From a virus, in the IMG/VR virus record IMGVR_UViG_3300032298_001311, positions 1-64,000 of that record: a stretch of 64,000 bases of DNA; one strand, 5' to 3'. A model generated the notes under the pieces. The model was not told the origin of the DNA and made no database searches. It worked only from the letters and a program-made list of their open reading frames with translations. Numbering within the stretch: position 1 is the stretch's first letter; each line of letters begins with the position of its first letter. The position numbers were made by a program, and so were the translations under genes. This document shows, piece by piece, positions 1 through 53,080 of the stretch.

Positions 1-348
1 TACAGTAGTTGATGCTGTGGGTAATTCGTAAGTGTCTGGACTTGCATCAGTCCAAGTATTATTATAATAGATATACAGTTTTTCTTCTGCGGTATTATAC
101 CATAAATCACCCTCAATTGGGTTATCTGGAGGAGTACTACCGAAACTTGAACTTGGTGGTTTATCAGATAAGTCATTAAAACTTCCAGTGTAGGCTACAG
201 TGGCTAATCCTGATAATGTTGATGTATTTTCGTCAATTTGTGTATAAACTTCGTCAAAGTTCTCATTGATCTTAATAAAGGCTGTTCTTAAACCTTCGCC
301 ATCACCTGCTAAATCTGAACTACCTACATTTATAAGTTGCTTTGTCAT
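1..348 (-). CDS. Tail/baseplate protein with T4 gp9/gp10-like N-terminus (runs off window edge; not in ORF track)
   Basis: Manual translation MTKQLINVGSSDLAGDGEGLRTAFIKINENFDEV...GDLWYN; same N-terminal motif as 19341..20075 and 20111..27151. Confidence 0.7.
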   Translation of the reverse strand, partial: MTKQLINVGSSDLAGDGEGLRTAFIKINENFDEVYTQIDENTSTLSGLATVAYTGSFNDLSDKPPSSSFGSTPPDNPIEGDLWYNTAEEKLYIYYNNTWTDASPDTYELPTASTTV

Positions 349-359
349 TTCCTACCTTC

Positions 360-776
360 TTAAAAGTTTAATAAAATTCTGTTTACATTACCTGCTGTCC
401 AGTTAGTAACTTCGGCACGAATCCAAACAAAGTTTCCAGTGAAATTATATGTTTTATTAATTGTGGTTGCTGATGTATAGGTTACCTCTGTAATGGTACC
501 TATTTTACTTGCTAGACCAGTTGTATCAACACTATATGCTCCACCTTGCGGAGATATGCGGACATCTAACCAATCGTCATCGCCGGGAGTCGTTGCTAAG
601 GATCCCTGTATTTTAACAGTTCCTATAAAGTTTGTAAGTTGAATTTGTACGGTATGAAATCCGTCGCCCATTCCATAAAAGCCAGCACCTTTGGATCTCT
701 CGCCTACTAATGTGGAGGGATTGCTGGTATTATCATGAGAATTAGATGGTAATAGTATTACGCTGTTTGCGGCCAT
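360..776 (-). CDS. Hypothetical phage protein, probably virion-associated
   Basis: 138-aa beta-rich ORF preceded by ATAAATA late-promoter motif near 797. Confidence 0.6.
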   Translation of the reverse strand: MAANSVILLPSNSHDNTSNPSTLVGERSKGAGFYGMGDGFHTVQIQLTNFIGTVKIQGSLATTPGDDDWLDVRISPQGGAYSVDTTGLASKIGTITEVTYTSATTINKTYNFTGNFVWIRAEVTNWTAGNVNRILLNF

Positions 777-1809: not shown

Positions 1810-4027
1810 GTGTACCTCTATAGTTTAGTTTAACATCTTTTCCTTCACAGTCAACCTCGACTATGCCACCAGACTTAAGAGATCCAAATAACATCTCACG
1901 ACTCATTGGCTTCTTAATTTCTTGGTCAATGATTCGTGCTAACGGACGAGCGCCCATCTTTGGATTAAAGCCCTTCTTAATAAGTAGAGCCATTCCGCTT
2001 TCACTAACTTCAACCTTAACATTCTTTTCACTAACAAGAGTATTAAGATCCCTAATGAACTTCTTAACAATATATTCCATACTCTCTTTGCCTAATTTAT
2101 TGAACTTGATAACCCCGTCCAATCTATTACGAAACTCTGGAGCAAAGAAACTAGTCATCGCTTCTTCGCCGTCGTTGTATCGGTCTTCAGTTGAGAAGCC
2201 AATAGTCTGACGTTCGGCATCCTTAGCACCAAGATTAGAAGTCATAATTAAAATAACATTACGACAATCAGCAACCTTACCATTTGATCCAGTGACTTGC
2301 CCATTATCCATTAGTTGGAGTAGAATGTTGCTAACATCTGGATGAGCTTTTTCAATTTCGTCAAGAAGTAGAACACAATGTGGATGTTCTTGTACTTTTG
2401 TAATCAACATGCCTGCGTTTTCTTCGTATCCGACGTAACCTGGAGGTGATCCAATCAGTTTAGCAACAGAATGCTTTTCCTGGTATTCGCTCATATCAAA
2501 GCGAATTAAGTTTACAGCAAGATTATCTGCTAGTTGCTTTGCTGTCTCGGTCTTACCGCATCCAGTTGGGCCAACAAACAAGAAACTACCAATTGGTTTA
2601 GTAGGATCTTTAAGTCCTGCACGAGCAATAAAGATCTTGTCGAGGACATCATCAATAGCCTTGTCCTGTCCAAATACTTTATGCTTCATGTTAGTTTCAA
2701 GATTGCTAAGTCCTTCACTCTCTGTTTCTGCAACAGCTTCAACAGGAAGTTTAACCATCTTGCTTAGTTCAAATTCGATACTCTTCTTTGTAACAATTCG
2801 TTCTTTAGAAGCATCAAGTTTAAATCTGGAACAAGCAAGATCGATAAGATCGATAGCCTTATCTGGCAACTTCTTGTCTGTGAGATATTTAACGGAAAGT
2901 TTAACAGCGTCCTCGATAGCAGCATCTGTAATCTCTGCCTTGTGGAATTTTTCGTAATACTTTTTAATACCTTTAATAATATCTATAGAAACTTCTGCTG
3001 TTGGCTCATCAACAGTTACTCTTTGGAATCGACGCATTAGAGCACGATCCTTTTCAAAGTGCTTGCGATATTCTTCCCAAGTAGTTGAAGCAATTACCTT
3101 AATAGCACCTTTGCTGAGAGCAGGTTTCAGCATATTAGCCATATCATTTGGATTGTTATTACTTGAACCAGCACCACTCATCATGTGAGCTTCGTCAATA
3201 AATATAATTGCTTTACCTTTACGTTCGATAGCCTTAAGGACTGCTTTGAGTCTTTCTTCAAACTCACCACGATATTTTGAACCAGCAAGCATAGCACCGA
3301 TGTCTAAGTTATAAAGTGTGTGATCCTTAATAAACTCTGGAACCTCACCATTAACAATTTCAAAAGCAAGTCCTTCTGCGATAGCAGTCTTACCAACACC
3401 TGGATCACCAACAAGAATTACATTAGCCTTGTTACGACGTCCGAGGGCAAGGATGATACTTTCAATTTCTACTTCACGACCAATAACAGGATCAATCTTA
3501 TTTTTCTGAACCTGTTGATTCATATTAGCTGTAAATTGTGAGAGAAGTTTATCGATACCATCGGATCCTATGTTTTCGTCATCAACTTGAATAGTTTCTT
3601 CTTCAACATAATCTGCAAATTTTTCTTTTGTAAAGTTTGATTTATTAAGATAATAAATTGCATAACTTTTCTTTTCAGAAAGGATACTTAAAAAAAGATC
3701 ATTTAATTCTATTCTTTGTCTACCATTAAAAAGAACTTGAGTAAAAGCACGATTTAAACATCTTTCAACTGTTTGAGTTTTTTGTGGTTTAGTCTTTCTT
3801 CCAGCACAAACAATATCTTTTAAATTATTTTTAATAAAGTGTTCTAGATTTATTTTGGTATAATTTAAATCGCCAGGATAATCATTTAGAAAAGTCAAAA
3901 ATTTATCATTAGTTATCATAGCCAAAACAAGATGTTCAAGAGTAAGATATTCGTGTTGGTGATTTACTGCAATTGCAACAGCCTTATCATACACAATCTG
4001 TAATTCTTCGCTAGGCTCTAAAATCAT
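1760..4027 (-). CDS. clpA: ATP-dependent Clp protease ATP-binding subunit ClpA
   Basis: Clp N-domain, two AAA+ modules (GDPGVGKT, GPTGCGKT), pore loop GSKYRGEFE, no ClpB middle domain, 755 aa. Confidence 0.9.
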   Translation of the reverse strand: MILEPSEELQIVYDKAVAIAVNHQHEYLTLEHLVLAMITNDKFLTFLNDYPGDLNYTKINLEHFIKNNLKDIVCAGRKTKPQKTQTVERCLNRAFTQVLFNGRQRIELNDLFLSILSEKKSYAIYYLNKSNFTKEKFADYVEEETIQVDDENIGSDGIDKLLSQFTANMNQQVQKNKIDPVIGREVEIESIILALGRRNKANVILVGDPGVGKTAIAEGLAFEIVNGEVPEFIKDHTLYNLDIGAMLAGSKYRGEFEERLKAVLKAIERKGKAIIFIDEAHMMSGAGSSNNNPNDMANMLKPALSKGAIKVIASTTWEEYRKHFEKDRALMRRFQRVTVDEPTAEVSIDIIKGIKKYYEKFHKAEITDAAIEDAVKLSVKYLTDKKLPDKAIDLIDLACSRFKLDASKERIVTKKSIEFELSKMVKLPVEAVAETESEGLSNLETNMKHKVFGQDKAIDDVLDKIFIARAGLKDPTKPIGSFLFVGPTGCGKTETAKQLADNLAVNLIRFDMSEYQEKHSVAKLIGSPPGYVGYEENAGMLITKVQEHPHCVLLLDEIEKAHPDVSNILLQLMDNGQVTGSNGKVADCRNVILIMTSNLGAKDAERQTIGFSTEDRYNDGEEAMTSFFAPEFRNRLDGVIKFNKLGKESMEYIVKKFIRDLNTLVSEKNVKVEVSESGMALLIKKGFNPKMGARPLARIIDQEIKKPMSREMLFGSLKSGGIVEVDCEGKDVKLNYRGTHENQNDGQALLPLFSV

Positions 4028-8593: not shown

Positions 8594-9391
8594 TCAACAC
8601 TGATTAAGTTTTTCTGTTATGTCATTATAAGATATTTGATAGAATTTTTCTGCAAAATTCTTTTGAGTATTAGGGCCATGATGTATATTATCTCTAGCAT
8701 AATCAACAACAGTGTGATCGAAAACATATTGTTTTATTCTTGGAAAATTTATATTCGTAAAATCATAATCATCATCATAAGAATAAAATAAAAAGGTACT
8801 ATTCCATCTTTCTAATAATAAATTTAATACAGAAAAATTTTTCTCTGTTTGATAAATTACATATCTTTTTTCGTAAAGAACATCTGACTTCGAATTTTTT
8901 TCAACGTATTGCTTCCAGGGTCCCCATTGATCAGTATCCCATCTTTCTCTTCTAATAACATGTGGTAATAATGATATTATTATATTAGGTCTCAATAAAT
9001 CTCCATAATGAATTAAGTATCTAACTAAATGATCTAATCCGGTTCCGCCTGCTGCTATATTCCAAAATGGAATTTTTTGATTTAGATCGTTACAAATTTT
9101 TTTATGAAATACATTAGCCCATGTATCCTCAATAGGTAATCCTATACCTTCAGTATGACTACACCCAGCAAATACTATTCTAGTAGAATGTCTCTTCCAT
9201 GATTCGAATTCATCAGACCTAAACCCTTGACTATTATATTTGTAAGATATATCAGTTGGTCCATAAGGAACTAACTTTTTTACTTTGTTATAATTTTCTT
9301 CAGTATCGGGAGAAAACCAATCAAAGACTTTATTAGAAAAATATTTTCTAGGAGTTGCTAAAAATTCATTTTCTGTAATATTGTTATTCAT
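8594..9391 (-). CDS. SGNH/GDSL-like hydrolase or acyltransferase
   Basis: FAGCSHTEGIG block I, NIAAGG block II, RDNIHHG block V. Confidence 0.6.
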   Translation of the reverse strand: MNNNITENEFLATPRKYFSNKVFDWFSPDTEENYNKVKKLVPYGPTDISYKYNSQGFRSDEFESWKRHSTRIVFAGCSHTEGIGLPIEDTWANVFHKKICNDLNQKIPFWNIAAGGTGLDHLVRYLIHYGDLLRPNIIISLLPHVIRRERWDTDQWGPWKQYVEKNSKSDVLYEKRYVIYQTEKNFSVLNLLLERWNSTFLFYSYDDDYDFTNINFPRIKQYVFDHTVVDYARDNIHHGPNTQKNFAEKFYQISYNDITEKLNQC

Positions 9392-9397
9392 AATAAG

Positions 9398-9676
9398 TTA
9401 GCGCATCATCTCCATAGATATAATTCTAGTTAGGCTTTCACTAAAATTTTGATCTGCCGAAATAATATACATCTTGGAACTATTACGATCCTTATATTCA
9501 TCATACTTGCGGAACTCAACAATATGTCTACCAGTAGCAGCCCATACGTTAACATTCATTCCGTCGGTTGCAAGTCTGTTAGAAGTACGTATTTCGTTAC
9601 AAGGTACTACTGTAGGTCTGTCGGACATTACCGCACTATCGAGTCTACGTTGTAACCACATAAAAAATTTGTTCAT
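9398..9676 (-). CDS. Hypothetical phage protein
   Basis: 92-aa ORF coupled to upstream small ORF. Confidence 0.6.
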   Translation of the reverse strand: MNKFFMWLQRRLDSAVMSDRPTVVPCNEIRTSNRLATDGMNVNVWAATGRHIVEFRKYDEYKDRNSSKMYIISADQNFSESLTRIISMEMMR

Positions 9677-11716: not shown

Positions 11717-12042
11717 ATTTCGGCTGCGAAATAGGCATCCTCTGGTTTTACTTCACTTATTGCCATAACAGCTTTTGCCTCAACTCTACGAACTATAATT
11801 GAGGTGCCATCATTCTGATCTAACTTAATTCCTCTAGTCCAACGTCCGTGTTCGACAAGTACCCATTCACCTATTTTCACTTCTTCTTGTTTAGGACCAA
11901 CAGCATAGACTTTCCCCCATCTAGGTTTAATTCCATGCTGTTTCCCGTCATCATCTATAATAATGATTCCACTTCTAGTTTTTTGTTCACCGAATTCCAT
12001 ATCTTGTACAATTATATGATCAAGAATAGGTCTTATTTTCAT
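11713..12042 (-). CDS. groES: Co-chaperonin GroES
   Basis: MKIRPILDHIIV...KTRSGIII...GKVYAVGP...GEWVL; start placed at 12042. Confidence 0.85.
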   Translation of the reverse strand: MKIRPILDHIIVQDMEFGEQKTRSGIIIIDDDGKQHGIKPRWGKVYAVGPKQEEVKIGEWVLVEHGRWTRGIKLDQNDGTSIIVRRVEAKAVMAISEVKPEDAYFAAEI

Positions 12043-17400: not shown

Positions 17401-19302
17401 TAGTAGAGAATGACTCATAGTTATAATATTTGTAACAAAGTTTATATCGATTATAGTAGTTGCATTTGATGGTAAACAATTACTACCTTGGGGAGGAATA
17501 ATATAGCTACCAAGTTTTAAATCCGATACAGAGTCTACTTTTAAAGTGTTTGACCCGATATTATTAACTCCTGATGTAAATTTTACTATATTATTTTCTT
17601 TTACTGATATAATACTATTTTTTAAAACATTTTTAACAGATGTTAATTTTAAAATATAATTTCCTTCATTGGCTTGTTCAGCTAATGTCCTATCAACAAA
17701 ATTAGATCTATCTCCACTTGTTCCTATTTCTAGATCCCCCGAAGGAGTAACCCATATAGGTTTGTCTGCACCTTCTATAGTAATATCATATGTTCGATCG
17801 GATAATCCTGTTGCATTTGTTGCTCTTAACACAAATCTAAAATTTTTCTCTGTAGGAACTTCAAAAGGTGTTCCTACAATGTTAAGGTCTTCTATTCGTA
17901 ACCCTGGAGGTAGTTGACCTGAAATTAAATCTAAAGATATATCACCAGGGAAAATAAAAGATCCATTTGGTAATAACGGTTCATTATAATATGTTGGTCC
18001 TAAAATATAAGGATATCTTGGAAGATAAGTGTCATTTGGATCAACAGTTACAAAATAAGCATATGTTCCTCTTGGATATTCCGGAGTAACACAATTTCGA
18101 CCATTGCATTTATCTAAATCTCCAAACGCAATAATATATTCATAATCTTCAATATAAGTTCCATCTGGTATGGTACCACTATATCTCTGTGTTTCTTTAA
18201 GTCTATAACTAGAACGCATTACGTTATATAATTCTGTAGGCAATGTTTCTCTCCAATGAGAATCTATATTTGGAGAAGGAAAATTATAAGTATCTTCTGG
18301 ACGATCTTTATCGTATGTAAAACTATCTAATTCTTCAGTAAGAATAAAATAAGTATCATTGAATCTAACTATATCGTTTACTTTATAGCTATATCTAATG
18401 TTACTAGTTGTATATATTGCAGTCTCTATATTTCTAACATATTCTAGCGGGAAAAAACGAATTATGCTTGAATTTAGAGTTAAATCGTTATATAAAACAT
18501 TATATCCTTGATTGTCGGTATCTACAATTTCACCGAACACCCATCTATCATGAGATTCCAAATAAACTGATGCCGTTCTAGTATAAGTAGAAGACCAATC
18601 TCCAATAAAGGAATTAGAATACCCATAAGGTCCGTATATAGGATTACCGTCAAATGCATAACCTATAATAGGACTGTGTTTTGTAGGATCTTTTTCGTAA
18701 AGAAATCTTGGGTCAGTAATATAATGAAATCTACGATCCGATCTAATTATACCTGACCCGTCACTAAATGGCCCCCAAGGATCTGTGCTATCATCTTGAT
18801 ATGACTGTATTGGATAAAGAGCAGAATTTTCTGTATACTGCTCACCTCCGATATCTGCGATTATTCCCGAATTAGGACTTCTAAAAGGAACACCGTCTAT
18901 AGCAACTCCAAAAAAACCTTCGGTACTAGTGTTGCTTAATTTACGTGGAAAACCTGCTGTAGTTTTACCGTCTATAGTTCTTTCTTCTCTAGGAAGTTTA
19001 AAAACATATCTTTGTGGAAGAGGAGTATATGCATTAACGCTTTGTGGTTGTCCTAGCCACGCCGTTTGTGGCATTCCTGTACTTTTAATCCAAAAAAATT
19101 CTGCATTGCTATAAGTAGGTAACAACGTAGAATCTACAGAATTATCAAATATTCTAGTTTCAGGAGAACTTTGATCTTCCTTATCATAAACAATAATTGG
19201 TATTGTTACAGTTGTTCTTTCACTAAATGGCTCAATTGTATTAGTAAGAGGATTAGTTCCTAAATTATAATTTGATGCATAAGCCCAGCTAGGTATTCCC
19301 AT
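14425..19302 (-). CDS. Large baseplate/virion protein with N-terminal YHYH-like domain and Ig-like repeats
   Basis: GVAIDGVP, HSPIIGYAFDGNPIYGPYG, DLDKCNGR motifs; repeated LPPGL Ig-like units; 1625 aa. Confidence 0.7.
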   Translation of the reverse strand: MGIPSWAYASNYNLGTNPLTNTIEPFSERTTVTIPIIVYDKEDQSSPETRIFDNSVDSTLLPTYSNAEFFWIKSTGMPQTAWLGQPQSVNAYTPLPQRYVFKLPREERTIDGKTTAGFPRKLSNTSTEGFFGVAIDGVPFRSPNSGIIADIGGEQYTENSALYPIQSYQDDSTDPWGPFSDGSGIIRSDRRFHYITDPRFLYEKDPTKHSPIIGYAFDGNPIYGPYGYSNSFIGDWSSTYTRTASVYLESHDRWVFGEIVDTDNQGYNVLYNDLTLNSSIIRFFPLEYVRNIETAIYTTSNIRYSYKVNDIVRFNDTYFILTEELDSFTYDKDRPEDTYNFPSPNIDSHWRETLPTELYNVMRSSYRLKETQRYSGTIPDGTYIEDYEYIIAFGDLDKCNGRNCVTPEYPRGTYAYFVTVDPNDTYLPRYPYILGPTYYNEPLLPNGSFIFPGDISLDLISGQLPPGLRIEDLNIVGTPFEVPTEKNFRFVLRATNATGLSDRTYDITIEGADKPIWVTPSGDLEIGTSGDRSNFVDRTLAEQANEGNYILKLTSVKNVLKNSIISVKENNIVKFTSGVNNIGSNTLKVDSVSDLKLGSYIIPPQGSNCLPSNATTIIDINFVTNIITMSHSLLKTLPSGIRFTFSHLPSNPFASNTQITSIDTISKTVSLSKPVISEIPWGTRLRFTSTYRHVNLFVVDGDYVNYQLSAIDQDLATGQKLTYYIPPRGGELPPGLSLSLDGIISGFAEPIILNDAGEYNGNYDMQLYDRYAYDYGVRPYNGFDSFLYDNTIFDYSDLVRNPRKLNRYYSFIVRAFDGQYYEDRRFRIFVIGDDMFRSDTTIMEVGSRIYTADITPIRKPFWLTPSYLGKRRANNYITMFLDVYDVNTLRGALGYVLDPVNDDGSISRLPPGMILDQTSGELYGDVPYQPAVTKTYKFTVRAIRYDPDNPLYGYEKFTSSVNSVGQNALKLDSVLNLRIDSLVTSSQGNNYIIPGTVITSIDEGSKTVTLSTNIQNTIPSGTRFTFSYVVSSAKTFTLDIIGEIDSTIRFITEGDLGEIPANFISSLQVEATSTVTNAVLNYTLIGGRLPPGLNLIGDGTIQGKVKQFSEGIYRSFWKAYRVYAIDDIVLYNDKYYIATVPSEESSFNLNQWIEYYQFPDGIFKSYWRPFISYFINDIVRYEDNYYIATSPNNSETFSYETWDVYIDQSGGLTIFDQNDFTLDKSNTTIDRDYKFIVLAQDQFKLSAITKNFTISITTPNDLLYSNIYVKPFLKTNKRLELTDFFTNPEIFTHTMLYRPSDQSFGVQTELKMLMYAGIETKVASEYVAALGRSSRKRYRFGSVKKAIAKSPGTNNVVYEAVYIEVIDNMENDKGSIPTSFKVKIGKDPTRKDPDNGTNPLETKIKVNQGKRDLWDVSSNTIFYNKLSASIGSSTLTINSIYNIEVNDLITSAIGSYFQKETAILSIDKDSNTIVISKPLISSIPANTQIRFDKDDLSRILVQDKVMTADYNGQTVGDINYRSLFGNSTTNIRKNIEKIGETERNFLPLWMRTPQSFSGIEQGFTKGILLCYAKPGYGDTIVNNIKNLGIDFKSIDFTVDRVIIDSVKGDDGDKYIAFAAREIING

Positions 19303-50755: not shown

Positions 50756-51397
50756 TTATCTCTTAAAAAGATATTTTTTTTCTTCAAAAAACTTATAATT
50801 TTTTTTATTTAAATGGTATATGTGACTATTTACTTCATCCCAATTCTTTATATAAGATTCATAATTACCCGGAGTTTTAATTAAAGAACTAGATTTTTGG
50901 TATTCTTCTATATCTAATGGAGGTAAATCTAGTATAGAACATAAAGATAAAGGATCATTTTTAAATTCATCATAATTTATTATTGTAGAAATAGAAAACA
51001 AATCTTTAGGAATAGTATTATACCATTCTAACATTAGATGATATTGTCCTACAAAATCTTTAATATTTAAATGAAAAGGTGTTATTTCTAATTTTGGAGT
51101 TTCTGTGCTATAATGATAGATATTAGTATTTTTTGCTATAAAATGGCTTAAACAAATTTCTATAGGATTTCTTATACTGATGATATATTTCCCTTTTTTT
51201 AACGGGAAAAATTTTTTTTGGTGATCATGTATTATTACTTGATTTTTAGATATAATATCTTTTGATATTTCATTAGAAGTTATTAATTTTAAATCGACAT
51301 TCTGTTCTCTATAAACTCTACGTATAATGTTTACTATTAACATACTTCCCGTTCGACCGGGAGTTGTAATAAACCAATTATCGTATTCTAAAAACAT
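50756..51397 (-). CDS. Sulfotransferase-like protein
   Basis: 5'-PSB-like TPGRTGSMLI and 3'-PB-like IRNP...S. Confidence 0.65.
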   Translation of the reverse strand: MFLEYDNWFITTPGRTGSMLIVNIIRRVYREQNVDLKLITSNEISKDIISKNQVIIHDHQKKFFPLKKGKYIISIRNPIEICLSHFIAKNTNIYHYSTETPKLEITPFHLNIKDFVGQYHLMLEWYNTIPKDLFSISTIINYDEFKNDPLSLCSILDLPPLDIEEYQKSSSLIKTPGNYESYIKNWDEVNSHIYHLNKKNYKFFEEKKYLFKR

Positions 51398-51415
51398 ACA
51401 TTATTTAATAGAATT

Positions 51416-51501
51416 TGGCGGCCCGTTAGCCCCTAGGGTGTTGGAAACCCAGGATTGACCCCCGAGTGGGACTTCTTCCTATTTGAGCACCGCGACGGGC
51501 C
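51416..51501 (-). ncRNA. Unclassified 86-nt tRNA-like RNA with acceptor stem and CCA
   Basis: GGCCCGT/ACGGGCC 7-bp stem plus G-CCA; internal GGGT-TTCCAAC-ACCC hairpin; no cloverleaf. Confidence 0.55.
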
Positions 51502-51514
51502 AAGCGCGGCTTTC

Positions 51515-52204
51515 TTACTTACGATCTCCGAAGAGCATAAGCAGATTTATAAACATGTTGATAAAGTTCATATAAAGTTGTAATGCTCCGTAAATACCAA
51601 GCATTTCTCTTTCACCTTCATAAGAACGATCGTACATGTCCTTTAACATCTGAACATCATAAGCAGTAAGACCTGCGAAAAGTAATACTGCGATAAGACT
51701 TGTAGCAGTAGCAATAACTGTGCTCTGAACAAATAAATTAATAAGACCAGTTATAATCAGCCCCATCAATCCCATAAACAAGAATGATCCAAACTGTGTT
51801 AGATCACGCTTCGTTGTATATCCATACAGGCTAACTGCTCCAAACATAGCACTTGTTCCAAAGAAAAGTGTAAAGATACTACCCATCTTAAACAGAGCAA
51901 AGATAAATGCTAAACTTATACCTGTTGCTGCTGAATAAACATAGAACCAAGTTCTTGCCTGCGCTGGAGTCATTGATCTAATAGCCCAAGACAAGTACAT
52001 AACAATTCCTAATGGTGCTAACATCACTAACCATTTTTGTGGACCACCGAAGAACATTCCTAATAGTTCTGGACTTGTGCCAACAATAAATGATAGCACA
52101 CTACTAATGGCGAGACCTATCGCCATATTATTAAAGATACTGAGCATATACTGTCTCAGCCCTTCGTTATAAGAAATACCTACAGTATTATAACCGGATC
52201 TCAT
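51515..52204 (-). CDS. Bax inhibitor-1/YccA family membrane protein
   Basis: About seven TM helices, GYTTKRDLT, ALQLYMNFINMF. Confidence 0.9.
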   Translation of the reverse strand: MRSGYNTVGISYNEGLRQYMLSIFNNMAIGLAISSVLSFIVGTSPELLGMFFGGPQKWLVMLAPLGIVMYLSWAIRSMTPAQARTWFYVYSAATGISLAFIFALFKMGSIFTLFFGTSAMFGAVSLYGYTTKRDLTQFGSFLFMGLMGLIITGLINLFVQSTVIATATSLIAVLLFAGLTAYDVQMLKDMYDRSYEGEREMLGIYGALQLYMNFINMFINLLMLFGDRK

Positions 52205-52271: not shown

Positions 52272-52826
52272 TTAAGAATTATTCATAAAACAAAACCAAC
52301 CAGTTATAATATATTTTATTTCAGTGTTAGAAACAACACCTCTATGATAATGTGTCCACCCTGCAGGCCAAATTATTGTTAATCCTTTTTCAGGAGGAGT
52401 TGTTAAATTTTGATGAATAAACTCTGTTCCGCCACCATCTTTAATATCATTCAAATATGTCATATAAACTAAATGCCTGTTTATATAATTATCAAGTCCA
52501 TTGTTTTCGCAATGTTCTATTGAATAAAATTTTCCAGGATCATATCTTTGTATTCTAGGGCGGGTGAAACCCCATTTAACAATATCTTTCGAACAAAAGG
52601 GATATAAATTTTTATAATTTGTTGTTACTTGTATTAATTCTTTACAATATCTTTCACATAATTTAGAATCAAAATATTCTAAATCTATATCTCTATATTC
52701 TTTAATTCCGCTTTGGAATACTAAAGGATTACTCTCGCCTTTTGTTACTATTGAATCGCATAAGGTATGATCGATATACCAACCTGCTATGAAATTATTT
52801 AGATTGTTTATACTACTTGATTTCAT
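52272..52826 (-). CDS. 2OG-Fe(II) oxygenase (prolyl 4-hydroxylase-like)
   Basis: EHCE, YMTYLND..GGGTEF, WPAGWTHYHRG; start MKSSS at 52826. Confidence 0.82.
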   Translation of the reverse strand: MKSSSINNLNNFIAGWYIDHTLCDSIVTKGESNPLVFQSGIKEYRDIDLEYFDSKLCERYCKELIQVTTNYKNLYPFCSKDIVKWGFTRPRIQRYDPGKFYSIEHCENNGLDNYINRHLVYMTYLNDIKDGGGTEFIHQNLTTPPEKGLTIIWPAGWTHYHRGVVSNTEIKYIITGWFCFMNNS

Positions 52827-52846
52827 AAATTTAATTATCAGTTTGA

Positions 52847-52922
52847 TGGTAGACCGTGAGGGATTTGAACCCCCGACAAAGTGATTAAGAGTCACCTGCT
52901 CTACCAACTGAGCTAACGGTCC
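52847..52922 (-). tRNA. tRNA-Lys(CTT)
   Basis: Loop CTCTTAA, CCA. Confidence 0.95.
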
Positions 52923-52927
52923 ATAAC

Positions 52928-53005
52928 TGGTTGGCGTAGCTGGATTCGAACCAGCGACCTCAGACTTATCAGGTCTGCGCTCTGAACCAACTGAGCTATA
53001 CGCCA
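52928..53005 (-). tRNA. tRNA-Ile(GAT)
   Basis: Loop CTGATAA, CCA. Confidence 0.95.
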
Positions 53006-53006
53006 A

Positions 53007-53080
53007 TGGTACCGACATCAGGTATCGATCCTGATCTAACTGATCCACAATCAATCGTGCTACCTTTACACTATGTCGGC
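53007..53080 (-). tRNA. tRNA-His(GTG), no encoded G-1, A73
   Basis: Loop TTGTGGA; acceptor GCCGACA/TGTCGGT, A, CCA; T-loop ATCGATA. Confidence 0.88.

Follow-up and report, generated by a model that had tools for sequence, protein, structure and literature searches.

A minus-strand sequence that can close a tRNA acceptor stem and ends in CCA, but folds into no cloverleaf, raises the question of what kind of RNA, if any, it encodes. The locus lies in a 64,000-nucleotide (nt) stretch of DNA (positions 1 to 64,000 of IMG/VR virus record IMGVR_UViG_3300032298_001311; the window hereafter), which represents the first half of a 128,772-bp record of a double-stranded DNA (dsDNA) phage that is estimated to be 36% complete. 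A first-pass annotation, made from the letters alone, had described an 86-nt tRNA mimic at positions 51416-51501. As detailed below, the element extends to 51416-51510 (minus strand) and encodes, as a single-copy gene of the phage, a small RNA of approximately 95-100 nt, whose apparent acceptor stem is the second stem of an H-type pseudoknot. Comparison among related sequences leaves little doubt that both the fold and the family are real. The RNA is perhaps best regarded as a rewired tRNA-Trp mimic that matures in a tRNA-like manner and engages the machinery that reads tRNA-Trp, most likely tryptophanyl-tRNA synthetase (TrpRS); the structure is well supported and the function inferred, and this reading as a whole is held at somewhat under even odds.

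A pseudoknotted RNA and its family

Read directly, GGCCCGU and ACGGGCC at the ends of the annotated element are perfectly complementary, such that the 7-bp acceptor-like stem, the G and the CCA are indeed present on the minus strand, which also carries all of the genes around them. The G+C content of the element is 0.60, compared to approximately 0.35 in its surroundings. Folded as a single sequence, the 86-mer gives -31.1 kcal/mol with z = -0.16, which is not significant. The single-sequence fold is thus uninformative and structural support rests on comparison with relatives, among which conservation starts at the 5' strand of helix P1 and ends within approximately 3 nt past the CCA. The parts of the RNA, beyond the original 86-mer, are listed in the 5' to 3' direction of the transcript.

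51416-51501, minus strand: the 86-mer of the first-pass annotation, GGCCCGU ... ACGGGCC-G-CCA
51505-51510, minus strand: 5' strand of helix P1 (P1a), GCCGCG, paired with 51494-51489 and upstream of the first-pass start
51502-51504, minus strand: pseudoknot loop 1, CUU, in which both positions before G+1 (-1 and -2) are U
51495-51501, minus strand: 5' strand of stem S2 (S2a), GGCCCGU, within the loop of hairpin P1 and paired with 51426-51420
51489-51494, minus strand: 3' strand of P1 (P1b), CGCGGU, directly abutting S2a
51471-51488, minus strand: junction J1/3, with a conserved AAGU at its end in the alignments
51461-51470, minus strand: hairpin P3, CCC-ACUC-GGG, of variable length across the family (absent to approximately 12 bp)
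51457-51460, minus strand: 5' strand of helix P4, GGUC, paired with GGCU at 51431-51428
51432-51453, minus strand: stem-loop P5, CCUGGGU / ACCC(U)AGG, with the 7-nt loop UUCCAAC at 51446-51440
51444-51442, minus strand: anticodon-like CCA in the P5 loop
51428-51431, minus strand: 3' strand of P4, GGCU, followed by a single linker A at 51427
51420-51426, minus strand: 3' strand of S2 (S2b), ACGGGCC, the perfect complement of GGCCCGU (51501-51495)
51416-51419, minus strand: discriminator-like G equivalent to G73 (51419) and encoded CCA (51418-51416)

Relatives were collected with sequence patterns. A scan of IMG/VR for GGCCCGU-N55-85-ACGGGCCGCCA returned 85 loci, most of which are coding sequence or ordinary tRNA-Asp, -Asn and -Arg genes that share this acceptor stem, while approximately two dozen are evident relatives of the window element. 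Further members came from a metagenome scan, including the close relatives L139 and L143/L147, which sit behind a gene of the Bax1-I family as does the element in the window, and from a scan that allowed transitions in the stem (degenerate S2). Together, the family comprises at least 44 distinct sequences from uncultured phage and metagenome contigs, distributed among three subfamilies. Subfamily A (71-95 nt) includes the window element and is found mostly within the tRNA arrays of large phages; subfamily B (69-75 nt) is carried by small phages, whose fetched loci are devoid of tRNA genes; and subfamily C measures 73 nt. A covariance model built from 11 subfamily-A seeds (R1) scores non-seed members of A at 54-77 bits, and those of B and C at 28-45 bits. 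Members occur in marine, freshwater and soil phage contigs with a G+C content of 0.33 to 0.65, and the element is present in single copy in three complete phage genomes of 381,886, 169,069 and 156,381 bp, and likewise in the record that contains the window. The lineages cannot be counted as independent, and the family is surely wider, given that each of the patterns used for the searches kept S2 fixed, or the loop, or the two together.

The decisive feature lies upstream of the annotated start. In every true member, the 5-9 nt that precede (C/G)UU-GGCCCGU complement the bases immediately following GGCCCGU, forming helix P1. Its sequence differs between members: GCCGCG/CGCGGU in the window, and elsewhere UCCCG/CGGGA, GCUCG/CGAGC, CCACG/CGUGG, GCGAC/GUCGC and AAUGCC/GGCAUU. 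Over all pattern matches, the number of contiguous P1 pairs is bimodal, with 0-3 pairs, the range seen in chance matches, in 74 and at least 4 pairs, nearly always 5-8 as in most family members, in 53. In an alignment of 43 distinct sequences, which was fitted to the model and thus favours its structure, compensatory changes are seen at 6/6 P1 pairs, 95% of cells are paired, and the covariation score of 0.383 compares to 0.098 in shuffled alignments (0/500 reach the observed value) and at most 0.067 with slid partners. S2 is paired in 100% of cells in the same alignment and is almost invariant in sequence, an invariance that is partly ascertained by the search patterns and therefore overstated. 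Its few changes include a compensatory U3-A70 in L172 and two wobble changes in L107. Loop 1 reads (C/G)UU in nearly all members.

The order of strands is therefore P1a, loop 1, S2a, P1b, a long loop 3, S2b and GCCA, in which P1 and S2 cross to form an H-type pseudoknot whose stem 2 is the supposed acceptor stem. With S2a lying in the hairpin loop of P1, the acceptor-like stem is not the stem that joins the 5' and 3' termini of the primary transcript. The pairing of the leader, and hence the pseudoknot topology, is new here. The original description of an acceptor-type helix with CCA stands, while its architecture needed revision, as the arm is pseudoknotted and requires upstream sequence; at least 9 nt more than the stated 86 (P1a at 51510-51505 and the loop CUU at 51504-51502) belong to the element. 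By direct reading, P1b of L071 and L073 is able to refold with downstream bases. An additional upstream helix, P0, which is present in subfamily B, was looked for in the window clade and is not conserved there. Locus L172 also harbours a degenerate second copy (2277-2384, minus strand; 19.9 bits), approximately 490 nt upstream of the intact one at 1692-1794. In this copy, P1, loop 1, the junction and P3 are retained, both the UUCCAA arm and the CCA are missing, and two S2 pairs have changed on both sides (GUUCCGU/ACGGAAG).

The remainder of the RNA, enclosed by loop 3, forms a separate arm. Among 15 subfamily-A sequences, aligned to the model in the same manner and with the same bias, 88% of the cells of P4 and P5 are paired, and the covariation score of 0.393 compares to 0.139 for shuffled alignments (0/500) and at most 0.137 for slid partners. 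J1/3, which leads into this arm, carries a 10-nt insertion in the window clade relative to the usual (U)AUANAAGU. P4 consists of 4 bp, and its closing pair in subfamily A is C-G in eight members, U-A in three, A-U in one and G-C in one; it also retains two G-U pairs, which would be A-C mismatches on the other strand, and the transcript is accordingly that of the minus strand. P5 is composed of 5-7 bp with compensatory changes in 6/7 pairs, and in L139 and L143 the loop is kept while the stem has changed on both sides. Thermodynamic folding of the inner segment by itself recovers P3 and P4 with P5 in many members. The AGUCCC/GGGGCU pairing suggested earlier thus gives way to the covarying helices CCC/GGG (P3) and GGUC/GGCU (P4).

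The loop of this arm, UUCCAA(N), is near-invariant across the family, again with the reservation that some patterns fixed it. Nevertheless, UCCA occupies the terminal loop of 41/44 distinct members folded, and among the members from the scan that fixed S2 only, it is found in the loop of all distinct members but one, which indicates that the loop triplet does not vary freely. In one subgroup, the loop is closed by a G-U pair, which leaves a UUCCAA hexaloop of 6 nt. The hairpin that had been called T-loop-like is present (51453-51432), but it reads at least as well as the anticodon stem-loop of tRNA-Trp, and with a 4+7-bp covarying arm that displays CCA, the earlier statement that the RNA has no anticodon arm is doubtful.

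The family is previously undescribed and, as far as the searched sequences extend, found only in uncultured phages. The exact pattern gave three chance matches and no true member among 185,579 prokaryote species genomes (one each), and blastn of the locus, the element and three other members against 50,697 GenBank phage records returned nothing, or chance matches with E of at least 1. No relatives of two flanking proteins were found among the viral contigs searched, and an S2-free motif scan (AAGUCC...GGGGUCA...UUCCAA) proved too strict, with 3 true members in 37 matches. A permissive comparison of the region 51250-51700 to Rfam 15 at E<=10 revealed nothing relevant at the element, eight other family loci had no Rfam match overlapping the element at E<=1, and the literature, searched both for the concept and for the invariant 3' motif, yielded no description of it. 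As a conserved, strand-specific and structured RNA with a G-CCA end and tRNA-like spacing, it merits the earlier designation of a new tRNA mimic; the checks that had been proposed for it, against Rfam families and by homologues and covariation, both came out in its favour.

Resemblance to tRNA-Trp

The topology described above would allow the RNA to rebuild the shape of a tRNA from differently connected strands. S2 is continuous with P1b on one strand and the stems of standard H-type pseudoknots stack, which suggests that S2 (7 bp) stacked on P1 (5-6 bp) would form an arm of 12-13 bp with a G-CCA overhang, a copy of the 12-bp acceptor/T arm of tRNA. As P4-P5 is joined to S2b by a single A, this second arm would branch from the stack at a distance of 7 bp from the CCA end, matching the exit of the D/anticodon arm from a tRNA core, and its 4 + 5-7 bp would copy the D stem and anticodon stem, with P3 standing where the variable arm would.

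The details of the mimicry point to one particular tRNA. The tRNA-Trp genes of these phages have the anticodon loop CUCCAAA and G73, from which the UUCCAA(N) loop of the element differs at position 32 only, plus position 38 in subfamily A, where N varies. The discriminator G is invariant in all 43 aligned sequences. G73 is the bacterial Trp discriminator, and bacterial TrpRS recognizes its tRNA by C34, C35 and A36 in a 7-nt loop together with G73, as known for Escherichia coli and Bacillus subtilis.

The genomic neighbourhood agrees with this assignment. Over 12 subfamily-A lineages, tRNA-Trp(CCA) fills 6/21 of the nearest-tRNA slots, compared to a share of 6.6% among all tRNAs there (binomial P approximately 0.002, with the caveat that the statistic rests on about 12 lineages that possibly share ancestry). 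It lies 12 nt (L012) and 23 nt (L071) upstream of the element or 4 nt downstream (L044), is the only tRNA of the L084 locus, and in relatives of the window element is located just upstream of the Bax1-I gene. A tRNA-Trp(CCA) gene is present in 3/3 complete element-bearing genomes (G001, G002 and G003, the last having nine tRNAs only) and in G006, and is absent from the available DNA of the window's record (20 tRNAs, 36% complete) and of G008, the record of L172 (29 tRNAs). The element thus usually accompanies a normal tRNA-Trp and is no replacement for it.

Taken together, these features make it more likely than not that the RNA mimics tRNA-Trp specifically. There are, nonetheless, several features that a tRNA-Trp mimic read by TrpRS does not readily accommodate. 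The 1:72 pair is G-C, whereas the tRNA-Trp of these phages has A1-U72, as in bacteria. The hexaloop subgroup does not present a classic 7-nt anticodon loop, and UUCCAAC may also be read as a T-loop (UUCNA). The near-invariance of S2, albeit partly a product of the search patterns as is that of the loop, is left unexplained by TrpRS recognition, and the same stem with G73 occurs on phage tRNA-Asp and tRNA-Asn. Moreover, the fetched loci of subfamilies B and C, which come from small phages, contain no tRNA genes and vary in gene context.

Genomic setting, probable maturation and possible functions

The element of the window follows a gene for a membrane protein and is transcribed in the same direction.

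51518-52204, minus strand: Bax1-I / BI-1 family membrane protein gene (PF01027, 7e-49)

P1a begins 4 nt past the TAA stop codon of this gene (51517-51515). A promoter-like site was sought before the element and none was found there, while one precedes the Bax1-I gene. The association of the two is kept in L139 and L143, and the downstream neighbours differ. ARAGORN finds 18 tRNAs in the window, each with an encoded CCA and all co-oriented with the element, in agreement with the first reading of the locus, and 20 in the full record. In seven lineages, the next tRNA starts 4-7 nt past the CCA of the element, the ordinary spacing between tRNAs, and the gap that separates an upstream tRNA from G+1 measures at least 11-12 nt, just enough room for P1a and loop 1. 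Loci of subfamilies B and C have no constant partner gene; a major-head module, a helicase/exonuclease module and a Cas4-like exonuclease are among their neighbours. The flanking genes differ likewise among relatives, and the earlier suggestion that the RNA donates an aminoacyl group to neighbouring enzymes finds no such link. Genes for TrpRS (PF00579) and the CCA-adding enzyme (PF01743) were sought in the window's record (128.8 kb), and none was detected.

Such a setting invites comparison with tRNA maturation. Bacterial RNase P RNA cuts H-type pseudoknots with a 3'-GCCA in loop 1, and does so best with U at -1; it also cuts the tRNA-like structure of turnip yellow mosaic virus (TYMV), and pseudoknots of the TYMV type are aminoacylated (PMC12710915). 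The U-1, G+1:C72 and G73-CCA of the phage family match these determinants, and cleavage in loop 1 is predicted on this basis. The RNA would share a transcript with adjacent genes, in the window forming the 3' end of the Bax1-I message, and RNase P would probably cut between U-1 (51502) and G+1 (51501) to release the very 86-mer that was first annotated. Its 3' end would be trimmed to CCA in the fashion of a tRNA, while the leader may stay bound through P1 or be lost.

Several other features of these loci deserve mention in their own right. A 260-residue open reading frame (ORF) listed at 52272-53054 (minus strand) of the window crosses three tRNA genes and its first half is spurious; the real gene is probably that of a 2OG-Fe(II) oxygenase domain protein at approximately 52275-52652 (PF13640, 1e-08). 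Beyond the window, the same record carries its own permuted two-piece transfer-messenger RNA (tmRNA) at 77836-78239 (minus strand), identified by ARAGORN, with the tag ANDNFVASEIALAA, the style of which we take to resemble that of alphaproteobacteria, a hint at the host. In L172, a tRNA-like gene at 1810-1900 (minus strand), with a long variable arm, a GUA (Tyr) loop and a CCA end, is not called by ARAGORN and lies 11 nt upstream of the element. Unusual tRNAs called by ARAGORN in element-bearing phages include those with a UCA anticodon and discriminator A, a CUA anticodon (amber-suppressor type), and the 4-nt anticodons gtag and tatg (G008 9389-9466; L146:1254-1328; G001 17688-17762 and 11837-11910; G003 83984-84059). 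Stop-codon recoding in G008, with its UCA-anticodon tRNA, was considered and set aside, given that ORF content under table 4 versus table 11 is not diagnostic, being inflated by GC-rich DNA. In L084 and L073, a small ORF with a CxxxC...CxxC motif starts 17 and 3 nt past the element, respectively, and by eye resembles DUF1289. Finally, L136 contains a full-length tmRNA gene at 343-711 (plus strand; RF00023, 111.7 bits), approximately 610 nt upstream of its subfamily-B element at 1323-1396, and may represent a prophage at ssrA, which would make the subfamily-B phages temperate.

As to function, the near-invariant helix and the tRNA-Trp-like loop point to a conserved bacterial partner. Its resemblance to tRNA-Trp, together with the linkage to genes for that tRNA, restricts the candidates to partners specific for tRNA-Trp, among which TrpRS is the simplest choice for a protein that recognizes the anticodon loop as well as the G73-CCA end. 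The folded RNA would then act in trans, by occupying a protein that reads tRNA-Trp through its anticodon and G73-CCA, and TrpRS, as the most likely such protein, would charge it much as the tRNA-like ends of plant viruses are charged. That the RNA is in fact bound or charged by TrpRS is a tentative proposal.

The strongest competitor dispenses with a role in trans altogether. The pseudoknot and GCCA would constitute a compact signal for RNase P and 3' trimming that cuts a polycistronic transcript and leaves structured ends as protection for both messages, P1 holding the 3' end of the upstream one and S2 enclosing the 5' end of the downstream one, according to the same logic as mascRNA or the t-elements of plant mitochondria. 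The most conserved features are indeed those of a good RNase P substrate (U-1, G+1:C72, R73-CCA and a 12-13-bp stack), and the element follows closely on the Bax1-I stop codon without a promoter-like site of its own. ORFs also adjoin it on either side, beginning 18 nt past the CCA in the window and 13-25 nt past it in many subfamily-B loci, and ending 13-31 nt before it in several loci. A cutting signal would, however, hardly be expected in single copy in complete genomes of 156-382 kb, each with dozens of transcription units, and many members have tRNAs as their only neighbours, which leaves no message in need of protection. The near-invariance of S2 and of the UUCCAA loop across G+C contents of 0.33-0.65 is not required by RNase P, which does not depend on a specific sequence, and the elaborate, covarying P3/P4/P5 arm is superfluous for cleavage. 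Its single copy, varied neighbours, and near-invariant S2 and loop across base compositions fit a trans-acting RNA better than a punctuation mark, and a purely cis-acting element is considered unlikely.

A second alternative retains the mimicry of tRNA-Trp and changes its target: the RNA would serve as a decoy or inhibitor of a host nuclease, defence or toxin protein that attacks tRNA-Trp, with the phage supplying both a spare tRNA-Trp and a look-alike. Several PIN-domain VapC toxins cut the anticodon loop of tRNA-Trp, and phage tRNAs are known to counter tRNA-cleaving defences. The conservation of the anticodon-loop look-alike, its co-occurrence with a phage tRNA-Trp gene that often adjoins it, and the restriction of the family to phages (by the exact pattern in the species genomes above) are all in keeping with such a role. 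Known anticodon nucleases, however, read mainly the anticodon stem-loop, which leaves the conservation of the acceptor mimic, G73 and CCA unexplained; the likely hosts are not known to have a defence directed against tRNA-Trp, and no candidate partner gene is linked to the element. The decoy is accordingly judged a rather poor prospect.

The remaining possibilities fare worse. Were the RNA a genuine, aberrant tRNA-Trp without a T arm that is missed by tRNA finders, it would be charged by TrpRS and used at UGG codons. This would suit the CCA anticodon-like loop with its U33 and A37 equivalents, the G73-CCA end and the tRNA-like arm lengths, as well as the window's record and G008, which have the element and no canonical tRNA-Trp(CCA). 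A normal tRNA-Trp(CCA) is nevertheless found in all of the complete and most of the partial genomes, often next door, and the window's record is sufficiently incomplete that its missing tRNA-Trp may lie elsewhere. Furthermore, P1 needs the 5' leader, there is no elbow of T-loop and D-loop as used by EF-Tu and the ribosome, one subgroup has hexaloop variants, and some members occur in small phages without other tRNAs in the fetched loci, all of which renders a decoding role very unlikely.

Similarly, an RNase P-processed antisense regulator akin to C4 RNA, in which the UUCCAA loop pairs with a target of the UUGGAA type in a phage or host message, is highly improbable. A precedent exists in phages P1 and P7, where RNase P sets the C4 RNA free; the element displays an invariant loop on a long arm, and CCAA of that loop is complementary to UUGG in loop 1 and the start of S2a. 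Six invariant loop bases are few for target selection, however, and there is no Rfam C4 match; no conserved complementary site was seen downstream in the leaders of subfamily B, where CCAA-like sense repeats are found instead, and the link to tRNA-Trp genes would go unexplained. Lastly, the absence of any RNA gene, the locus being a chance GC-rich palindrome or a plus-strand terminator, for which the unremarkable single-sequence fold energy and one weak plus-strand terminator-like match at 51497-51512 (1 found versus 0.8 expected) might be cited, is effectively refuted by covariation in 43 sequences, the conserved G-U pairs of P4 that only the minus strand can form, the lack of a T-run past the stem, and the minus-strand orientation of all genes here.

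Comparison with known RNAs

The tRNA-Trp mimic proposed here was compared to a number of known RNAs, some of which can be set aside readily. The first reading had held that it is not a standard tmRNA, and this is borne out by its 3:70 pair, which is C-G in place of the G-U of alanine identity, and by the lack of an ARAGORN or Rfam tmRNA (RF00023) match at the element. C4 antisense RNA (RF01695), YrlA/Y RNA, self-cleaving ribozymes and riboswitches gave no Rfam match at E<=10. The small RNAs rnaC and rnaD of phage T4 (species 1 and 2) are comparable in that they are of unknown function, co-oriented, and located at the end of a phage tRNA cluster, and in that rnaD ends in CCA and rnaC has a T-arm-like hairpin; homology to them was considered and rejected, as model R1 finds nothing in T4 68000-76000 at E<=1.

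Canonical tRNA-Trp(CCA) (RF00005) shares with the element the 7-bp acceptor helix, G73, the encoded CCA, the U-CCA-A loop and the spacing within tRNA arrays, where the two genes are frequently adjoining. It differs in the D and T arms, both of which the element lacks, in the 1:72 pair discussed above, and in the placement of the 5' strand of the acceptor helix, which sits in a hairpin loop in the element. ARAGORN does not call the element, nor is it matched by the Rfam tRNA model at E<=10, and the covarying structure contains no D or T hairpin, such that the absence of a cloverleaf and D arm noted at the outset holds. The T-armless tRNAs of nematode mitochondria, which have a D arm, a short replacement loop for the T arm and a free 5' end at position 1, resemble the element in the anticodon-like arm with its 1-nt link to the 3' strand of the acceptor, but the element has no D hairpin, and its positions 8-13 pair with the 5' leader to form P1. 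A whole tRNA shape rebuilt with another strand topology would be useful for studies of recognition by RNase P and synthetases. It also exposes a gap in annotation, the element being missed by tRNA finders and Rfam alike in the tRNA arrays of jumbo phages.

The closest parallel is with the tRNA-like structures of plant viruses, represented by those of TYMV (TLS-Val; RF00233), tobacco mosaic virus and brome mosaic virus. In both, the acceptor arm is built as an H-type pseudoknot that the chain enters from upstream, position -1 is U and the 3' tail is a free NCCA, while a second arm displays an anticodon-type loop, with an overall mimicry of the L shape. The plant-virus structures are further characterized by aminoacylation through a host synthetase and by recognition through the CCA-adding enzyme, the elongation factor and RNase P. 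The two are nonetheless dissimilar in sequence and by covariance model (no Rfam match at E<=10), and the element is an internal gene of a dsDNA phage rather than the end of an RNA genome. Its stem 2 has the full 7 bp, compared to a pseudoknot stem of approximately 3 bp in TYMV; P1 takes the place of the T-stem, without a T-loop, and the identity features, as read from sequence, point to Trp.

Plant RNA viruses are the textbook source of pseudoknotted tRNA-like structures that can be aminoacylated, and to our knowledge none has been described as a gene of a DNA phage. It is conceivable, if at present doubtful, that DNA phages of many lineages carry a chargeable structure of this kind with Trp identity, as a single-copy gene whose product is released by RNase P and binds or consumes TrpRS, or another reader of tRNA-Trp, in trans. 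With TrpRS or a nuclease directed at tRNA-Trp as its partner, such an RNA would amount to a new route by which phages manipulate translation or evade tRNA-targeting defence, and would represent the first bacterial-virus counterpart of the aminoacylatable ends of plant viruses.

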